The notes under the pieces are model-generated. The model saw nothing but the letters and a program-made list of their open reading frames with translations, did no database searches and had not been told where the DNA came from. A stretch of DNA of 64,000 nucleotides, taken from assembly GCA_035480575.1 (NCBI GenBank), contig DATIHR010000022.1, positions 750 to 64,749 of the forward strand. Reading direction: 5' to 3'. The position numbers and the translations under genes were made by a program. This document shows positions 8,718 through 46,472 of the stretch, in pieces. This DNA is from Candidatus Saccharimonadales bacterium (lineage in GTDB: Bacteria; Patescibacteriota; Saccharimonadia; Saccharimonadales; UBA4665). The stretch's first letter is position 1. Every line of letters starts with the position of its first letter.

Positions 8718-9182
8718 ATGGACACAAATATTACAAAATATAGGCAAAAAATCGTTCAATTCCTCGTAAGCCTTAAAGATTTGCGGGTATTGGGGCTGTT
8801 TGTGTTTTTGGTTATTGTGCTGCTGGTAAGCTGGAGCGGCGTGAAGGCTATAGAAACAAACTACACGTTGCAAAAGCAAATTGCCCAGTTGCAGCAAGAA
8901 AACGCCGTGCAGAAACTAGCCAACCAAAACCTGGCGCTAGAGAACGACTACTACAAAACACCCCAGTACCTAGAACTGTCAGCGCGTAAAGATTTTGGCT
9001 TGGCGGCTGCGGGCGAAACAGTGTGGGTCGTGCCGAAGCATGTAGCGCTGGCACATACGGTAGATGTGCCCAAGCCGGTAGGTGTGTCAGCTGTTAAAAC
9101 CGATACCAACAAGCGGCCGGCGTACCAGCGCAATGTAACTGCCTGGCTCGACTTCTTATTCCATCGCCAACCGGCGCAATAA
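8718..9182 (+). CDS. ftsB: Septum formation initiator FtsB/DivIC family
   Basis: Single TM, coiled coil, YLELSARKDFGLAAAGET motif. Confidence 0.8.
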   Translation: MDTNITKYRQKIVQFLVSLKDLRVLGLFVFLVIVLLVSWSGVKAIETNYTLQKQIAQLQQENAVQKLANQNLALENDYYKTPQYLELSARKDFGLAAAGETVWVVPKHVALAHTVDVPKPVGVSAVKTDTNKRPAYQRNVTAWLDFLFHRQPAQ

Positions 9183-9198
9183 CGGTTATTATGATTAC

Positions 9199-9720
9199 GT
9201 GAACGCTTTGAGGCGCTGTGTTGGTTTAGTAGCCGCCGCTGTTTGTATGGCAGTTGGATTTGGCGCTGCCACTGCCCACGCGCACATTAATGGCAAGGCA
9301 CTGGTAAATATTAATGGCATCGACGTTATTGCCAGCACCAATCCGTATTCTATAAACGACCAGGCGCCCGAACTCTACGAGACAAAACAAGTACTGACAT
9401 TTTATATAAATAAAATCGCGCTGCCGGCATCGGTGCCGGCGGACGCAACGTTCCAGTGGTCGTGGGGTGACGACACGCCTGACGAGCAAGGCAGGCTTGC
9501 CCGCCATACCTACACGAAAGCAGGCACCTACCATGTAAAGGTATTGGCTCAAACGAAGGGCAGTACGGAATTTACGCGGCTCGATATAGTAGAGGTAACA
9601 CTGAAGCAACAGCCACGAACGCTGGCTAATGTAATTACCTTGGGCGTAGGTATTCTGGTTATTGGCGGTATTATTGCTGGCTTGCGGTGGGCGCACGCAC
9701 CGCATAAAAAGCGGCGCTAG
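9199..9720 (+). CDS. Secreted/anchored PKD-domain protein
   Basis: Signal peptide ending AHA-H; WSWGDD...HTYTKAGTYHV PKD motif; C-terminal TM. Confidence 0.75.
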   Translation: MNALRRCVGLVAAAVCMAVGFGAATAHAHINGKALVNINGIDVIASTNPYSINDQAPELYETKQVLTFYINKIALPASVPADATFQWSWGDDTPDEQGRLARHTYTKAGTYHVKVLAQTKGSTEFTRLDIVEVTLKQQPRTLANVITLGVGILVIGGIIAGLRWAHAPHKKRR

Positions 9721-9759
9721 CGCTGTGGTAGTATGGAACCATACGCAAGGATAGTAACA

Positions 9760-10128
9760 ATGAAATCTAAATATATCGTGTTTGTTGTCGTGGCTATAGC
9801 CGTACTGGTTGGCCTATTTGTATTGCTTAGGCCAAAAGATTCGACGCAGCCATCCACGTCGGCAACGAAGTCATTTGTACTGGTCGTTAAAGGCAAGCGG
9901 TTAGCGGAAGGCCCACAAACTCTGACGGTTAAAAAGGGTGATGTTGTGGCAATCGCCATTACCTCTGACGAAGAAGAGGAGCTACACCTCCATGGCTACG
10001 ACAAGAGTGTCGACCTAGAGCCAAACAAACAAGCCACGCTGCGTTTTACAGCCGATAAAACCGGCAATTTTCCGTATGAACTAGAGCATTCAAAAACGGA
10101 TATCGGGTCGCTGCAAGTGCAGCCGTAG
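9760..10128 (+). CDS. Membrane-anchored cupredoxin-like protein
   Basis: N-terminal TM; TVKKGDVV...HLHGYD...FTADKTGNFPYELEH. Confidence 0.75.
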   Translation: MKSKYIVFVVVAIAVLVGLFVLLRPKDSTQPSTSATKSFVLVVKGKRLAEGPQTLTVKKGDVVAIAITSDEEEELHLHGYDKSVDLEPNKQATLRFTADKTGNFPYELEHSKTDIGSLQVQP

Positions 10129-10130
10129 CC

Positions 10131-11462
10131 ATGAGCCCAATGCACATCGCCCTGTTTGCACATGCGTTCGGACAACGATACGACTTGCCTGTGCCGCTAT
10201 GGCTATACATATATGGCGGAGCTGCCGCGGTGTTGTTGTCGTTTGTGGTAGTTGGCTATTTTGTAGACAAAAAACGCAGCACTGTGCGACCGCCGGTGTT
10301 TATCTGCATGGTGCCGCATTGGGTACGTGTAGCGCTTGGTGTGTTTGGATGCGCGCTATTGGGCCTTATTGTGCTGGCCGGTTTAGTAGGCGGCCAAGTA
10401 CCCATACAAAACATAACGATTACCTTTTTTTGGATTACCTTTTTGCTTGGATGTACGTACCTGACAGTACTGTTGGGCAACTGGTGGCCGTATATCCGGC
10501 CCACGAGCGTACTAGTGCGTTTAGCGGAGCGGCTTGCCGGTGTACGGTTGGGGCCGTTTGTGCGATACCCTGAACGCTTAGGCTATTACCCCGCGCTTGT
10601 AACGTATATTGGGTTGATATGGCTTGAGCTGTTGTCTACAGGTTTTGGCGTAGTGCCGCAAAACTTGGCTTGGGTGTTAGTTGGGTACAGCGTTGTGTCT
10701 GCCACGGGTGCTATTGTATTCGGCGCCCGCGATTGGTACCGGTATGGCGATTTTTTTAGCGTCTTTTTTAGACTAATTGGCGCAATGGCGCCGTTTGTTC
10801 GCAAAGACGGCAACCTGTACGTGCGGCGGCCGCTGACTGGGCTACTGACGGCGACGCACCTGCGTTTTAGCTTGCTGTTATTTGTGTTATTTATGCTGTC
10901 CTCTACTGCTTTTGATGGCCTGCGCGATACCAAGGTGTTTAACCGTTTGCTTGCAGTAATGCCACAACTGTCTGGTCTAGATTTTTGGCTGTTATTGCTA
11001 CTGCCCTGCGTTTTTTTGGCATTGTACATGGCATGTATGGGGGTAATGTATAAACTTGTGCAGTCGGGGCGCACGGTGCGCGAACTGGCGGTTGTCTTTA
11101 GTGTAACGATTGTGCCCATTGCGTTCGCATACAATGTCGCGCACTATTGGACATTGCTCGTCATTCAGGGGCAGCAACTTATTGCGCTTGTATCCGACCC
11201 ATTAGGCTGGGGCTGGAATGTGTTTGGTACGGCGGGCTATACGGTTAACGTTGGTATCGTTGGCGCGTCCACGGTTTGGTACACCCAGGTGGGACTTATT
11301 GTGTTGGGTCACATTGCAGCGGTCTACCTAGCGCACCGTGTTGCCTTGCGTTTGTACCCCGATACAAAGCAGGCGGTGCGTAGCCAGTACCCAATGCTGG
11401 CACTCATGTTGCTGTATACCATGATCAGCTTGTGGATTATTGCCCAGCCTATTACGGCTTAA
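10131..11462 (+). CDS. Polytopic membrane protein (family often labelled fenitrothion hydrolase-like)
   Basis: AHAFGQRYDLPVPLW N-terminus, about 10 TMs, GHIAAVYLAH and SQYPML C-terminal motifs. Confidence 0.65.
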   Translation: MSPMHIALFAHAFGQRYDLPVPLWLYIYGGAAAVLLSFVVVGYFVDKKRSTVRPPVFICMVPHWVRVALGVFGCALLGLIVLAGLVGGQVPIQNITITFFWITFLLGCTYLTVLLGNWWPYIRPTSVLVRLAERLAGVRLGPFVRYPERLGYYPALVTYIGLIWLELLSTGFGVVPQNLAWVLVGYSVVSATGAIVFGARDWYRYGDFFSVFFRLIGAMAPFVRKDGNLYVRRPLTGLLTATHLRFSLLLFVLFMLSSTAFDGLRDTKVFNRLLAVMPQLSGLDFWLLLLLPCVFLALYMACMGVMYKLVQSGRTVRELAVVFSVTIVPIAFAYNVAHYWTLLVIQGQQLIALVSDPLGWGWNVFGTAGYTVNVGIVGASTVWYTQVGLIVLGHIAAVYLAHRVALRLYPDTKQAVRSQYPMLALMLLYTMISLWIIAQPITA

Positions 11463-11474
11463 GCCACTCGCTAT

Positions 11475-12122
11475 TTAGATGTGCCGTTTTAGGGACGTGC
11501 CAAGTTTTAGTAGTACCCAGCTAACCAAAAAGAACAGCGCCATAATGCCTATGGCGTGCGCAGCAACGCCGCCAAGACCGCCAACTTTATCTGGATTAAG
11601 AAACGGGTACGGGTACCAGCCGGTAGCCGCACCGCGCAGGCACACGTAGATCAGGTATGTGCCGGGGAATACCAACCATACCGTGGCCTGGGTGGCTACC
11701 AAATGCGTGCGCGGTGGCTGGTATAGCCAGTCAATAAGCACGGCAACGGGCATAATGTAGTGCACGACTACATTCACCCAAGGCAGCAGGGTGCCTACGT
11801 CTTCGTTACTGAGTAACAGGCCATATACAATGCCTACCAGCACAATTGCAACCACGGCTGCACCGCGCGCCAGGTCGTCCGAGAGCTTAGGGGTACGGTG
11901 CTTCGCTAAAAAGTATGCGCCGCTTAGTAGTACGCCTGCGGCAAATATGTTGGAAAGATTGGTAAAGTAGCTAAAAAAGTTTACGACACTAAAGCTATTG
12001 GTAACATGCACCGATAGCTGTGCGGTAACGGCTAGCAACCCGAGTACGCCGAAAAATATGCGGTACGCAATAAGTAGCTGCCGTTTGGATGGTGTTTTGT
12101 TTGGGTGTGCTTTTTGCTTCAT
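11475..12122 (-). CDS. Pr6Pr/FAR-17a-like membrane protein
   Basis: FFSYFTNLSN, HYIMPVAVLIDW and WYPYPFLNP motifs. Confidence 0.75.
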   Translation of the reverse strand: MKQKAHPNKTPSKRQLLIAYRIFFGVLGLLAVTAQLSVHVTNSFSVVNFFSYFTNLSNIFAAGVLLSGAYFLAKHRTPKLSDDLARGAAVVAIVLVGIVYGLLLSNEDVGTLLPWVNVVVHYIMPVAVLIDWLYQPPRTHLVATQATVWLVFPGTYLIYVCLRGAATGWYPYPFLNPDKVGGLGGVAAHAIGIMALFFLVSWVLLKLGTSLKRHI

Positions 12123-12124
12123 GG

Positions 12125-12979
12125 TTATTTGCAATAATCACTTGTTTTGCCAGCTTTGGCATCGCCGCCAGGCAGGGCAAGGGCCGCGGTTTTATCGGCT
12201 GCGGGCAGGTCGTTCAGCCAACAAATGCCATAGTACGCTTGCGATTTTACATCCGCGTGGGCAGATGCGTATGCGGCATTTTTGGAAGCTTCGTTGGGCT
12301 TACGCAAATCGTAGACGCCAAAATCCATGCTTACATTTAGGGCAGGGTCGGGGAATCCTACGGCGCTGGCAATACTGTCGCCTGCTTTGAATGGTTTAGG
12401 GGTACTAAAGTTGGTCGTTTGCGATTGGTTTGCTTTCGCCTCTGGTAGTCCATCTGCAAGCTGCTGGAATGCATCGCTTAGCGTCAGCAAGTGGTCGTAA
12501 CGCAGCATAATACCGCAGTCGTTTATAAAGTCGAACAAGTATTGCTCGGTACCGTTTTCTAGGTACCGTACTCCATCGACGGCAGTTGCATCCATAGCCA
12601 GCGACACATCGACGTCGTTATCTGTATTGTTGCCAAACAAAAAGCCACCATGTGGTTTGTACTGGTTACGGGTTTGGCCTGGGTACAATATGGCTGTTGC
12701 TTGGCTAATATCTACCGGACTTTGGCTTAAGAGCGGATCCGGGCATGTCGGTGGTGTTGCCGCCGCTTTCCAGGCCGACCCATCGAATGCCCAGCTGGCC
12801 TGCGAAGTTTTATTGGATTTATTGCTTCTATTAACAGTAATTGCATTTTTAAATTCGCTGTTTTTGCCAAACACATAGTAGCCGGCGTATCCAACCACGC
12901 CCAGCATTACTAAAATAAGGAGCACAAGGAACACATGCCCGAAGCCTGCCTCGGAGCGTAATTGTTGTGTAGTTTTCAT
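12125..12979 (-). CDS. Prepilin-type N-terminus fused to an M23/LytM-like fold
   Basis: RSEAG/FGHV then a hydrophobic helix; PHGGF, RYDHL and FKAGDSIA elements. Confidence 0.55.
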   Translation of the reverse strand: MKTTQQLRSEAGFGHVFLVLLILVMLGVVGYAGYYVFGKNSEFKNAITVNRSNKSNKTSQASWAFDGSAWKAAATPPTCPDPLLSQSPVDISQATAILYPGQTRNQYKPHGGFLFGNNTDNDVDVSLAMDATAVDGVRYLENGTEQYLFDFINDCGIMLRYDHLLTLSDAFQQLADGLPEAKANQSQTTNFSTPKPFKAGDSIASAVGFPDPALNVSMDFGVYDLRKPNEASKNAAYASAHADVKSQAYYGICWLNDLPAADKTAALALPGGDAKAGKTSDYCK

Positions 12980-19411: not shown

Positions 19412-19519
19412 ATGAGTAAGTTTAGGTACAATATGACGCCAAAAGAGCGCCGCATTGCAGCGTACAAGCACAGCAAATTACACGGTAAGCATGGCGGTTC
19501 TGCACGCTACGCTATGTAG
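19412..19519 (+). CDS. 35-aa basic small protein (MSKFRYNMTPKERRIAAYKHSKLHGKHGGSARYAM)
   Basis: GGAGG upstream; fills the gap exactly and stops 3 nt from the convergent APH stop. Confidence 0.45.
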   Translation: MSKFRYNMTPKERRIAAYKHSKLHGKHGGSARYAM

Positions 19520-19522
19520 ACA

Positions 19523-20446
19523 TTACCAAAGTAGTGCGAGCGTTTTATCGGTAACAGCTTTTAGACCGTCCCAGTTTTGTTGAAAGGCATTCCAGCCTTG
19601 GGCATCAAGCCCGATATGCAGTTTGTAGCACAGCATGCGCTCTTTGAAGTTGTTGACCTGCAGGCCTGTAGCTTCGTAATGGGCGGCCGCTTGTTCGTCC
19701 CAGTTAATGTCTTTCATAGCGTGATACCAGGGCGACCAAAAGGAGAGCCAAGCGAGGTCGTACAAAAAATCGCCGCGCATGGAGTTGCCCCAGTCCAGGA
19801 CGCCAGCAATATGGCCGTCCTCGACAAGCACGTTTTTGTAGAGCAAGTCGCTGTGTATAAGGTGCGGTTCTTCGGGGCAAAAGTGCACGAGTTTTTGCAG
19901 TTGGTCGAGCGCCTGGTTAAAGCCATTCAGGCCAACGGGCGAGGCGGCAAGTTTGTCTTTCCAGCCGTGCATGCGGCTATCTATGTTGTCATTGCCGGCG
20001 TCGGCAATATGTTCTTGCCACGAGCTATATGGCCCTATGCCTTTGCCGTTCCACCGGCCGTAGCCGCTCAGTTCCGCTGTACTGGCATTGCGCAGCCCAT
20101 CCAGCATCTCGAGTACGGCTGGTACGGTGCGCTGCATGTCGGCTTGGTTAAGGCTGTCTAGTATGTGCCCTTGTATGTATTCGGATATGGCAAAATAGCC
20201 ATCCAACGCTTCGCCAACTTCCAGAATGCGCGGGATGGGTAGTTTTTCGCCGGCAAAGCTGGCAGCAAGCTCGTCCTTTAAAAAGTCTTCCTCGCGCTGG
20301 CTAAACCGTATAACGTGCTGGACACCGGAATACATGTAGCAAAAGGCTTGCGACGATGCGCCCCCGTTAATAATGGTTACTTCGTTTACGGCAGGACCAA
20401 TGTGTTCGGTTAAGAATGCAGTTACTTGGTCTATGCTCAGGGCCAT
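19523..20446 (-). CDS. Aminoglycoside phosphotransferase family kinase (APH(4)/hygromycin-kinase-like)
   Basis: HSDLLYKNVLV and GVLDWG motifs; AAGGAG Shine-Dalgarno before the ATG at 20446. Confidence 0.85.
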   Translation of the reverse strand: MALSIDQVTAFLTEHIGPAVNEVTIINGGASSQAFCYMYSGVQHVIRFSQREEDFLKDELAASFAGEKLPIPRILEVGEALDGYFAISEYIQGHILDSLNQADMQRTVPAVLEMLDGLRNASTAELSGYGRWNGKGIGPYSSWQEHIADAGNDNIDSRMHGWKDKLAASPVGLNGFNQALDQLQKLVHFCPEEPHLIHSDLLYKNVLVEDGHIAGVLDWGNSMRGDFLYDLAWLSFWSPWYHAMKDINWDEQAAAHYEATGLQVNNFKERMLCYKLHIGLDAQGWNAFQQNWDGLKAVTDKTLALLW

Positions 20447-20476
20447 GGCGTACTCCTTTCCCCCATTGTATATCAA

Positions 20477-20638
20477 AGAACCCATTTCAAATCTCCCCCC
20501 AGCTACAAAACCACCTGACGGTGCCATATTTCAGTTTTGTTCGTCACCGTAACTACAGTTACGCTTCCTCGCAAGAACTAAAATCTGGCACTCGCCAGCT
20601 GCTTTTTCGCTATCGCGGGGAGATCTGAAATGGGTTCT
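20477..20638. repeat. 162-bp rod-like imperfect palindrome
   Basis: 22-bp terminal inverted repeats (21/22), inner inverted repeat 20521-20537/20575-20591 (14/17) and apical CGTAAC-TACA-GTTACG. Confidence 0.85.
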
Positions 20639-20714
20639 AGGTAAAATACTTCACTGCCAAAGTGCCTGCTTGTTTCTATAGTGCAATGAGCTTACTAATG
20701 TAAGGGGGTGCGCC

Positions 20715-20873
20715 ATGGGTTTTCTAGATGATCTTAAGAGTGATATGAGTGACGAATCGCGCGAGCGCTACGAAGAGCTAAAGCACCGCGAAGCCGCGGG
20801 CGACCTGGACGACCAAGCGCGGGCCGAACTGAACCAGCTTCGTGAGCGGTTCGAATATAGCGAGAGCAGCTAG
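20715..20873 (+). CDS. 52-aa acidic helical small protein (MGFLDDLKSDMSDESRERYEEL...)
   Basis: AAGGGGGT upstream; amphipathic, protein-like composition. Confidence 0.6.
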   Translation: MGFLDDLKSDMSDESRERYEELKHREAAGDLDDQARAELNQLRERFEYSESS

Positions 20874-20912
20874 CCAACAGGTTAAAAATCTGCTATATTT
20901 ACCCTGTTATAC

Positions 20913-20989
20913 GGCAGGGTAGCTCAGCTGGTTAGAGCACAGGACTCATAAGCCTGGGGTCGCGAGTTCAAGTCTCGCCCCTGCTACCA
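20913..20989 (+). tRNA. Elongator tRNA-Met (CAU)
   Basis: GGCAGGG acceptor stem, CTCATAA loop, CCA encoded; A31.G39 mismatch. Confidence 0.85.
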
Positions 20990-21022
20990 AGTAAATGCCC
21001 CACCGCAGGTGGGGTTTTTACT
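20990..21022 (+). terminator. Intrinsic terminator of tRNA-Met
   Basis: CCCCACC-GCA-GGTGGGG followed by TTTTT. Confidence 0.85.
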
Positions 21023-21065
21023 TGGTCAGAGGCCAGGTTAGTTTAATAAGTTATAGTATTTTATT

Positions 21066-21536
21066 ATGCGCATTCACTATGTCTGCCTTGGCAATGCTTA
21101 CCGAAGCCCTATAGCCGAAGCTTACACGAAATTCTACCTAGAGTCTCAAGGGATTGAAGGGATTGCAGTAGTGTCGAGCGGCACGATTGCTAGCGAGGAG
21201 TATGAACATACTCGGCCTGTTGCTGCGAGTACATGCAGGTTTCTTGGTGGCAAGGGCTTGGCAGCATATGCCAAAACAGATTCAGACCAGTTGACGCCGG
21301 AGCTTATTAGGCATGGTGATATTACAGTTTGTATGAACGCAAAGGTGCGCGAAGGGTACGATCAGATTGCACAGCTTCCGAATCAGACAACGTATACCTG
21401 GGACATAACTGATTCAGATGAGTGCGGACAGCCGGCACCAGTACCAGGCGGCGAAAAATGGCTAGAGCACACCGAGCGTATTTACAAGCAAATTACTGAT
21501 TTGGTACACGAGCTAGTGCATCGACAGATTGCGTAG
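21066..21536 (+). CDS. Low-molecular-weight phosphatase/ArsC-like protein
   Basis: P-loop CLGNAYRS, SSGT and D+VCM motifs. Confidence 0.8.
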   Translation: MRIHYVCLGNAYRSPIAEAYTKFYLESQGIEGIAVVSSGTIASEEYEHTRPVAASTCRFLGGKGLAAYAKTDSDQLTPELIRHGDITVCMNAKVREGYDQIAQLPNQTTYTWDITDSDECGQPAPVPGGEKWLEHTERIYKQITDLVHELVHRQIA

Positions 21537-38364: not shown

Positions 38365-38793
38365 ATGGAACTCCATAAGGAATATTGGCCGGATGTACAA
38401 CAGTACTGTGCCACTATTCTTGATGGAATACAGGCAAAGCGGCAATGGGTGTTGTGGCCTGTTGCCCGCACTGTATGTATCAAATACAGTTGGCGAGCTG
38501 ACCAGCCTACCCCACCACACGACGAGCAGCTAGGGCTGTATAAAGATCAGCTCTTGCTGCTCGGGTGGACCACGCTTACACACGAACTGACAATTCCGGA
38601 TTATCCGTATCCGCGTGTCATGCGTTTTAATCCAGACGAGGAACGAGTGTACGATGCACTTCCTTGGAAGGGATGGCACGCTCCTCGGGGCTGGCGGCAG
38701 TTAGGTCAGGAACATTACGATTTAATGTACGATGCCCTTGCCCGCGGCGCTGCTGCCAGGCAGCAAGAGCGGCAAGGGGGAAGCGCGCTTTGA
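38365..38793 (+). CDS. Hypothetical protein
   Basis: 142-aa ORF directly after dnaK. Confidence 0.55.
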   Translation: MELHKEYWPDVQQYCATILDGIQAKRQWVLWPVARTVCIKYSWRADQPTPPHDEQLGLYKDQLLLLGWTTLTHELTIPDYPYPRVMRFNPDEERVYDALPWKGWHAPRGWRQLGQEHYDLMYDALARGAAARQQERQGGSAL

Positions 38794-46150: not shown

Positions 46151-46360
46151 TGGTCGTAGAAGTGGAATAGTGGCCTTTGGCCTTTTCCGTTGTGGCGTGC
46201 TCGGTGCAGCAATTTAGCACTGATCGTAGACAAGCATTCTTACCTCGCTTTGCTCGGATAGCTCGCTCACGGCTAAAGCCTACCGCTTGGCCAAGCTAAG
46301 AAAACTCACCATGCCACTGGCATGGTTCGACCTACGGTTCGAATCCCACTGGCGCGACCA
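46151..46360. repeat. Palindrome-rich element ending in an inverted tRNA 3'-end copy
   Basis: GGTTCGAATCCCACTGGCGCGACCA at 46336-46360; imperfect complement at 46151-46169; internal small hairpins. Confidence 0.7.
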
Positions 46361-46395: not shown

Positions 46396-46472
46396 TGGAG
46401 GGCCCAGTGGGATTCGAACCCACGACACGCGGCTTAAAAGGCCGCTGCTCTAACCTGCTGAGCTATGGGCCC
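46396..46472 (-). tRNA. tRNA-Lys (UUU)
   Basis: GGGCCCATAGCTCAGCAGGTTAGAGCAGCGGCCTTTTAAGCCGCGTGTCGTGGGTTCGAATCCCACTGGGCCCTCCA; TTGACT-17-GATAAT promoter. Confidence 0.95.

Follow-up and report, generated by a model that had tools for sequence, protein, structure and literature searches.

The 162-bp palindrome at 20477-20638 of the window (the whole 64,000-nucleotide stretch analysed here) is very probably a MITE: a non-coding element that arose by internal deletion from an IS5-family insertion sequence (IS) of ~0.9 kb, which circulates in Saccharibacteria (Saccharimonadales), and that was inserted between an ORF of 52 aa and an APH-family phosphotransferase gene. The original prediction had described a MITE-like unit, and this part is borne out. 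The element has terminal inverted repeats in common with an autonomous IS5-family IS, is small and without transposase coding, belongs to a dispersed, multi-copy family, and shows a presence/absence polymorphism, as it is missing from the orthologous spacer of relatives. The feature of MITEs that is absent at the window copy is a target-site duplication: the element is flanked by AAA at one end and by TAG at the other, and the duplication has either decayed or never formed. Of the observations that the original prediction had named as speaking against it (a single copy, conservation in place across relatives, and a position away from an indel boundary), none was found to hold, where copy number was judged via metagenome contigs only.

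The features of the locus are as follows.

20477..20638, no strand: very probably a MITE, a non-autonomous IS5-family derivative (palindrome, family termini, full-length ISs with the same termini)
20477..20498, + strand: left terminal inverted repeat, AGAACCCATTTCAAATCTCCCC
20617..20638, - strand: right terminal inverted repeat, reverse complement AGAACCCATTTCAGATCTCCCC, with 1 mismatch to the left repeat
20521..20591, no strand: inner stem (20521-20536 / 20576-20591), internal loop and apical 6-bp hairpin (20548-20563), with weak likeness to the leader hairpin of the parent IS
19523..20446, - strand: APH-family phosphotransferase gene, hygromycin-B-kinase-like, PF01636; start codon at 20446, 30 nt from the MITE
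20715..20873, + strand: 52-aa ORF, divergent to APH, the pair being kept in relatives; the MITE lies within their common spacer
20913..20989, + strand: tRNA-Met (CAT), context only, outside the element

The palindrome is near-perfect. Its outer arms (20477-20498 / 20617-20638) pair at 21 of 22 positions, the inner stem pairs at 14 of 16 according to the inverted-repeat tool, and the apical stem of 6 bp (20548-20553 / 20558-20563) encloses the loop TACA. Three nested inverted repeats had been described before; the outer arms and the apical stem stand as they were given, while the middle stem is 14/16 and not 14/17. When 20477-20638 is folded as RNA, the energy is -69 kcal/mol for the + strand (z -8.7) and -94.7 kcal/mol for the - strand (z -13), and none of 200 shuffles reaches the fold energy of the element. 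An argument for strand asymmetry based on G-U pairs was rejected: one strand has only 3 wobble pairs vs 2 for the other, and the better-folding strand is not fixed with respect to the neighbouring genes. The element proper is probably 20478-20637 (GAACCC...GGGTTC). Tentatively, the + strand is the orientation of the parent IS.

A terminus of 21 nt, (A/T)GAACCCATTTCAAATCTCC, bounds the window element, a set of hairpin elements of 78-323 bp and the full-length ISs. The hairpin elements occupy many unrelated sites in Saccharibacteria-type contigs. To collect them, the terminus AGAACCCATTTCARATCTCC was scanned in one genome per species and then in metagenomes, and the fetched loci were searched allowing mismatches. 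The scan of one genome per species returned two true relatives, L007 (a Saccharimonadales MAG) and L008, together with two chance matches, and the metagenome scan returned 10 loci. L009 and L010 were rejected as family members, being chance matches within coding sequence, and L018 has a single terminus to which no partner arm belongs. In viral contigs the terminus gave no match.

The terminus AGAACCCATTTCARATCTCC recurs on the hairpin elements of L011, L012, L013, L014, L016 and L007. In total at least nine distinct copies are present in the fetched loci, and their flanks vary from copy to copy. The L011 element is 162 bp long and, when aligned with the window rod from end to end, shows 77% identity. 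Two copies (163 and 227 bp) are found in L013, and a 4-kb section (8801-12710) of L014 holds three (141, 90 and 168 bp); L014 is a 14-kb Saccharibacteria-type contig that carries a sortase with its best named relatives in Candidatus Saccharibacteria. The element of L016 is 78 bp, and that of L012 is 323 bp with an apparent nested insertion at the apex. Near-identical copies are found in differing contexts, for instance L012 vs L014c, and the 64-kb window itself contains a single copy only. When the MITEs are read as GAACCC..GGGTTC, 3-bp direct repeats flank some of them: TTA in L014a and L014c, and TAT in L016.

Two of these loci have features of their own. L012 8775-9097 (identical to L020 1644-1966) matches L014 12543-12710 but has about 155 extra bases in the apical loop. 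The extra stretch is bounded by inverted repeats of its own (CCGTTAACTTAAG...CTTAAGTTAACGG), with a repeated CCCGT(T)AGG on its flanks, and has the look of another small element sitting inside the first. L008 (DATHJH010000035.1) was binned as 'Candidatus Limnocylindria' (Chloroflexota). Over the element and the preceding 40 nt it does not differ from metagenome contig L013; its G+C content is 51-52%, and it carries two or three MITEs of this family. The binning may be wrong; if not, the MITE family crosses phyla.

The same termini bound full-length ISs of 886-908 bp, whose product is a DDE transposase of the IS5 family with a length of 264-267 aa. Four of them were delimited:

L015, 93-1000: full-length IS
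L021, 424-1320: full-length IS
L022, 2918-3814: full-length IS
L023, 2915-3800: full-length IS

The L015 IS is 908 bp long and has the domains DUF4096 and DDE_Tnp_1. The other three are 886-897 bp, with an intact single ORF, termini that carry 2-4 mismatches, and a stop codon inside the right repeat. The IS transposase scores 123.9 bits against NCBIfam NF033580 'IS5 family transposase' (cut-off 110) and 54 bits against PF01609 (cut-off 23). Direct repeats of 3 bp flank the ISs as well, ATA in L022 and GAT in L023. The L015 transposase has hundreds of relatives of 264-270 aa, mostly on contigs of ~0.9-1.2 kb, as is expected of repeated ISs. A tblastn search of the 64-kb window with the IS transposase found no transposase gene.

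In L015 (147-990) the transposase is split into two overlapping frames of 85 aa and 236 aa, while in relatives that are 72-84% identical it is a single ORF of 264-267 aa. The split may be programmed frameshifting of the IS427-group kind, or else the copy is broken.

Each of the four ISs has a hairpin in its 5' leader (L021 460-512, L022, L015, L023), for example GGGTAGTATTC...GGAATACTACCC followed by ATG, so that the 3' arm abuts the start codon. The stem varies in sequence between ISs with the pairing kept. The hairpin would sequester the start codon, and its function is probably translational control of the transposase. The interior of the L014a MITE matches the IS leader hairpin ending at the transposase start codon at 36 of 48 positions (z 5.8 vs shuffles). 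For the other copies the likeness of the interior to the IS leader is weak, with a few scores just above z 3. Given this weak homology of the interior, a descent of the MITE as 'left repeat + leader hairpin + right repeat' is what we infer rather than what is directly seen.

The position of the element can be compared with that in relatives. It is contained in the 268-bp spacer between the divergent APH and 52-aa ORF, with 30 nt between its end and the start codon of APH, which agrees with the earlier description of it as immediately 5' of APH. The closest named relative of the APH protein is from Candidatus Saccharimonadales. The pair of 52-aa ORF and APH is retained in L001-L003, where APH is 77% identical, and in L004 (70%). 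At the orthologous spacer L001-L004 have no such element, and the spacer is 121 or 118 bp. When 20478-20637 is removed from the window spacer, 108 bp are left, and these align with L004 and L001 on either side of the junction. At an APH protein identity of 70-77% the junction is not base-exact. Orthologous spacers without the rod, together with the alignment of the flanks, indicate that the rod is an insertion/deletion difference and not a conserved feature of the locus. The element sits at an AT-rich site between a conserved TATAGT box that belongs to the 52-aa ORF and a conserved GATATACAAT block before APH. In the source metagenomes the empty-site joint was not seen; the sole joint there is that of a shorter family member from elsewhere. 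For how the neighbouring APH gene is read, it matters that the spacer beside it has received an insertion; the gene pair is also kept in relatives without the element.

The 52-aa ORF is acidic (MGFLDDLKSDMSDESRERYEELKHRE...) and has no Pfam match. It lies divergently beside APH in all the relatives examined (L001-L005).

Four soil runs contain the window flanks at 98% of the sampled words. In one of these source runs, 24 Logan contigs carry rod-like pieces (at least 85% likeness) with other flanks, and the summed depth over the rod core is about 370 vs 21.8 on the flanks. Three rod-bearing contigs, at depths of 21.1, 21.0 and 19.4, match the window contig. One of these three tracks the depth of the window contig closely in three of the four runs and less so in the fourth (6.86/6.64, 21.1/21.8, 9.3/9.27 and 5.98/4.09). 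Judged solely by depth-matched metagenome contigs, the same organism likely has several copies. In further soil and root metagenomes the rod is found at 87-96% likeness without the APH flank.

Contigs repeatedly end inside the element. The Logan contigs of all four source runs stop at the hairpin apex (20561, 20550), the MAG contigs L007 and L008 end 9-16 nt inside the terminus, and the contig end of L006 is also at the element. An element of this type fragments assemblies and breaks metagenome contigs.

The most likely history of the window element is as follows. From a full-length IS it would have retained the terminal inverted repeats of ~21 bp, the ones that the IS transposase is expected to recognise, and a self-complementary interior that would descend from the 5' leader hairpin. 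The DDE transposase of a full-length IS would have mobilised it in trans, and it would have been inserted into the AT-rich site of the spacer between the 52-aa ORF and APH. There it would now be a passive passenger, and any effect that it has is likely limited to the transcription or translation of the flanking genes.

A different origin had been proposed originally, namely that the left arm copies the 3' end of the neighbouring tRNA-Met and that the element is derived from it. The count given was numerically correct: 20486-20508 matches 20967-20989 of the tRNA at 19 of 23 positions, ungapped, in direct orientation and 480 bp apart. Such a match to the tRNA 3' end could mean a recombination site derived from a tRNA end, be it what is left of the att site of an integrated island or a repeat of tRNA origin, and the third copy of L014 (12543-12710), which starts 20 nt after a tRNA-Leu (12438-12522), would be in line with this. 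However, a scan of all tRNAs against the whole window gives a second, unrelated match of 19/23 at 38611, which means that the arm is not clearly above background. Further, the likeness is confined to one arm of the window copy: the right arm matches at 13/23, other arms of the family at 10-17/23 and the ends of the parent ISs at 11-15/23. The conserved terminus includes only the T-loop-like TTCAAATC(TCC) of the match, and the remaining matches are in the variable part of the arm. Neither are the elements systematically close to tRNAs: among about 13 elements, one is adjacent to a tRNA, a second has one within 300 nt and no tRNA is close to any of the others, and 8 of 10 element loci have no tRNA within 800 nt. 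In addition, the fragment is upstream of the tRNA, unlike a displaced attB half, which is downstream, and there is no adjacent integrase, the neighbours being APH, the 52-aa ORF and an LMW phosphatase. With 19/23 in one arm of one copy, an equal-score chance match and no systematic proximity to tRNAs, a derivation from a tRNA is unsupported, and we regard it as very improbable; the likeness looks like a coincidence built on the T-loop-like octamer. The proposed role as a folded recombination substrate finds no support if an att or attC site is meant: no integrase lies close by, integron core sites are absent and the partial copy is upstream of the tRNA. An integron attC was also rejected on its ends, AGAACCC / GGGTTCT, which do not fit the RYYYAAC / GTTRRRY cores, and on the position of the element upstream of the ORF, not downstream.

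The other readings concern RNA. When the window element is compared with that of L011 (77% identity), 8 base pairs have changed on both sides and are still paired, 6 have changed on one side and are paired, and 5 are broken; for L013a vs L014c the numbers are 8, 1 and 3. The apical stems vary in sequence between copies and all pair. This excess of both-sided changes over broken pairs may reflect selection on the hairpin, but it may also have arisen if the copies go back to different parent ISs in which the leader hairpins covary, or by template switching inside the palindromes. The compensatory changes, together with the stronger fold of the - strand (the sense strand of APH), would fit a MITE that has been exapted as, or also acts as, a structured RNA: a hairpin in the APH 5' leader that modulates mRNA stability, processing (e.g. 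by RNase III) or translation. Such a role would not conflict with a MITE origin, and yet we consider it quite unlikely. An Rfam 15 covariance-model scan of 19500-21500 at E<=1 found tRNA only and no family for the palindrome. None of the RNA sequencing runs was found to contain the stretch. On the - strand there is no recognisable sigma-70-like promoter between the element and APH, where the TTGAAA of the terminus is only 14 nt from a TACAAT box and unconvincing. Moreover, the better-folding strand varies between copies relative to the neighbouring genes, and relatives that lack the element express this gene pair too. A wider proposal is that the family is not mere decaying junk and that its full-length hairpin is actively maintained, for mobilisation or for an RNA role, that the window copy has been co-opted to control APH from its 5' leader, and that this is the first MITE family described for the reduced Saccharibacteria genomes; from the pattern of pair changes we find this conceivable but unlikely as a whole. 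A strongly folded rod between genes could also be a free-standing small RNA gene (of the 6S, SRP or Y-RNA type) or a bidirectional terminator, which would not be mobile DNA. This is extremely improbable: in addition to the lack of an Rfam match, the flanking genes diverge and leave nothing to terminate, the element is missing at the site in relatives and occurs several times per contig elsewhere, and its ends are common to a transposase-bearing IS. As candidates, 6S, SRP, Y-RNA and riboswitches were rejected on the same scan.

Another tRNA-like piece is found elsewhere in the window. At 46330-46360 (+) there is a tRNA-like 3' end, GGTTCGAATCCCACTGGCGCGACCA, with 19/23 likeness to the 3' part of tRNA-Lys; it is inverted and lies about 35 nt past the 3' end of tRNA-Lys 46396-46472 (-). 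It could be a terminator hairpin built from a tRNA end, or a tRNA fragment.

With the reading as a MITE, the tempting 'tRNA-derived recombination element' is explained away as what is very probably ordinary mobile DNA, a routine MITE. What is gained, with modest value for annotation, is the definition of an IS5-type family of ISs and MITEs, with termini GAACCCATTTCAAATCTCC and a 3-bp duplication, that is abundant in soil Saccharibacteria and lies beside gene starts. It also shows that transposons which are active, or were so recently, are present in these small epibiont genomes.

Among known systems, the Correia elements of Neisseria, ERIC and RUP are near-palindromic intergenic MITEs of ~100-160 bp. 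They are often found beside gene starts and co-transcribed as long stem-loops, and effects at the RNA level are documented for them. The window element is a hairpin-forming intergenic MITE like these, with no sequence relationship to them. A literature search for MITEs in Saccharibacteria or Patescibacteria gave nothing relevant. As no description of a MITE for either was found in the literature searched, the present family is itself probably undescribed, while the IS5-derived MITE is already known as a type.

The parent ISs resemble the small IS5-family ISs (IS427 / IS1031 / ISL2-like groups) in their length of 886-908 bp, in a DUF4096 + DDE_Tnp_1 transposase that matches NF033580, in terminal inverted repeats of ~20 bp that begin with GA, and in target duplications of 3 bp. 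In the IS427 group the gene is split into two overlapping frames (PMC3281130). The split gene of L015 recalls this layout, whereas most of the IS relatives here have a single unbroken ORF. The window element differs from all such ISs in that it is without a transposase.

Parallels are also seen with bacterial MITEs such as BrickBuilt, MITE293 and MITE700 of Porphyromonas gingivalis and ATR of Neisseria. These are short elements without coding capacity, and their terminal inverted repeats agree fully or almost fully with those of IS5-family ISs in the same host; they occur between genes in multiple copies, with target duplications that vary or are absent (PMC4596501). The present family is likewise short, non-coding, multi-copy and intergenic, with target duplications on some copies only, and has IS5-family termini, as the P. 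gingivalis MITEs have termini in common with ISPg elements. In contrast, its sequence is unrelated and its host belongs to another phylum (Saccharibacteria / Patescibacteria). Further, the present family, with copies of 78-323 bp, is self-complementary along nearly its whole length.
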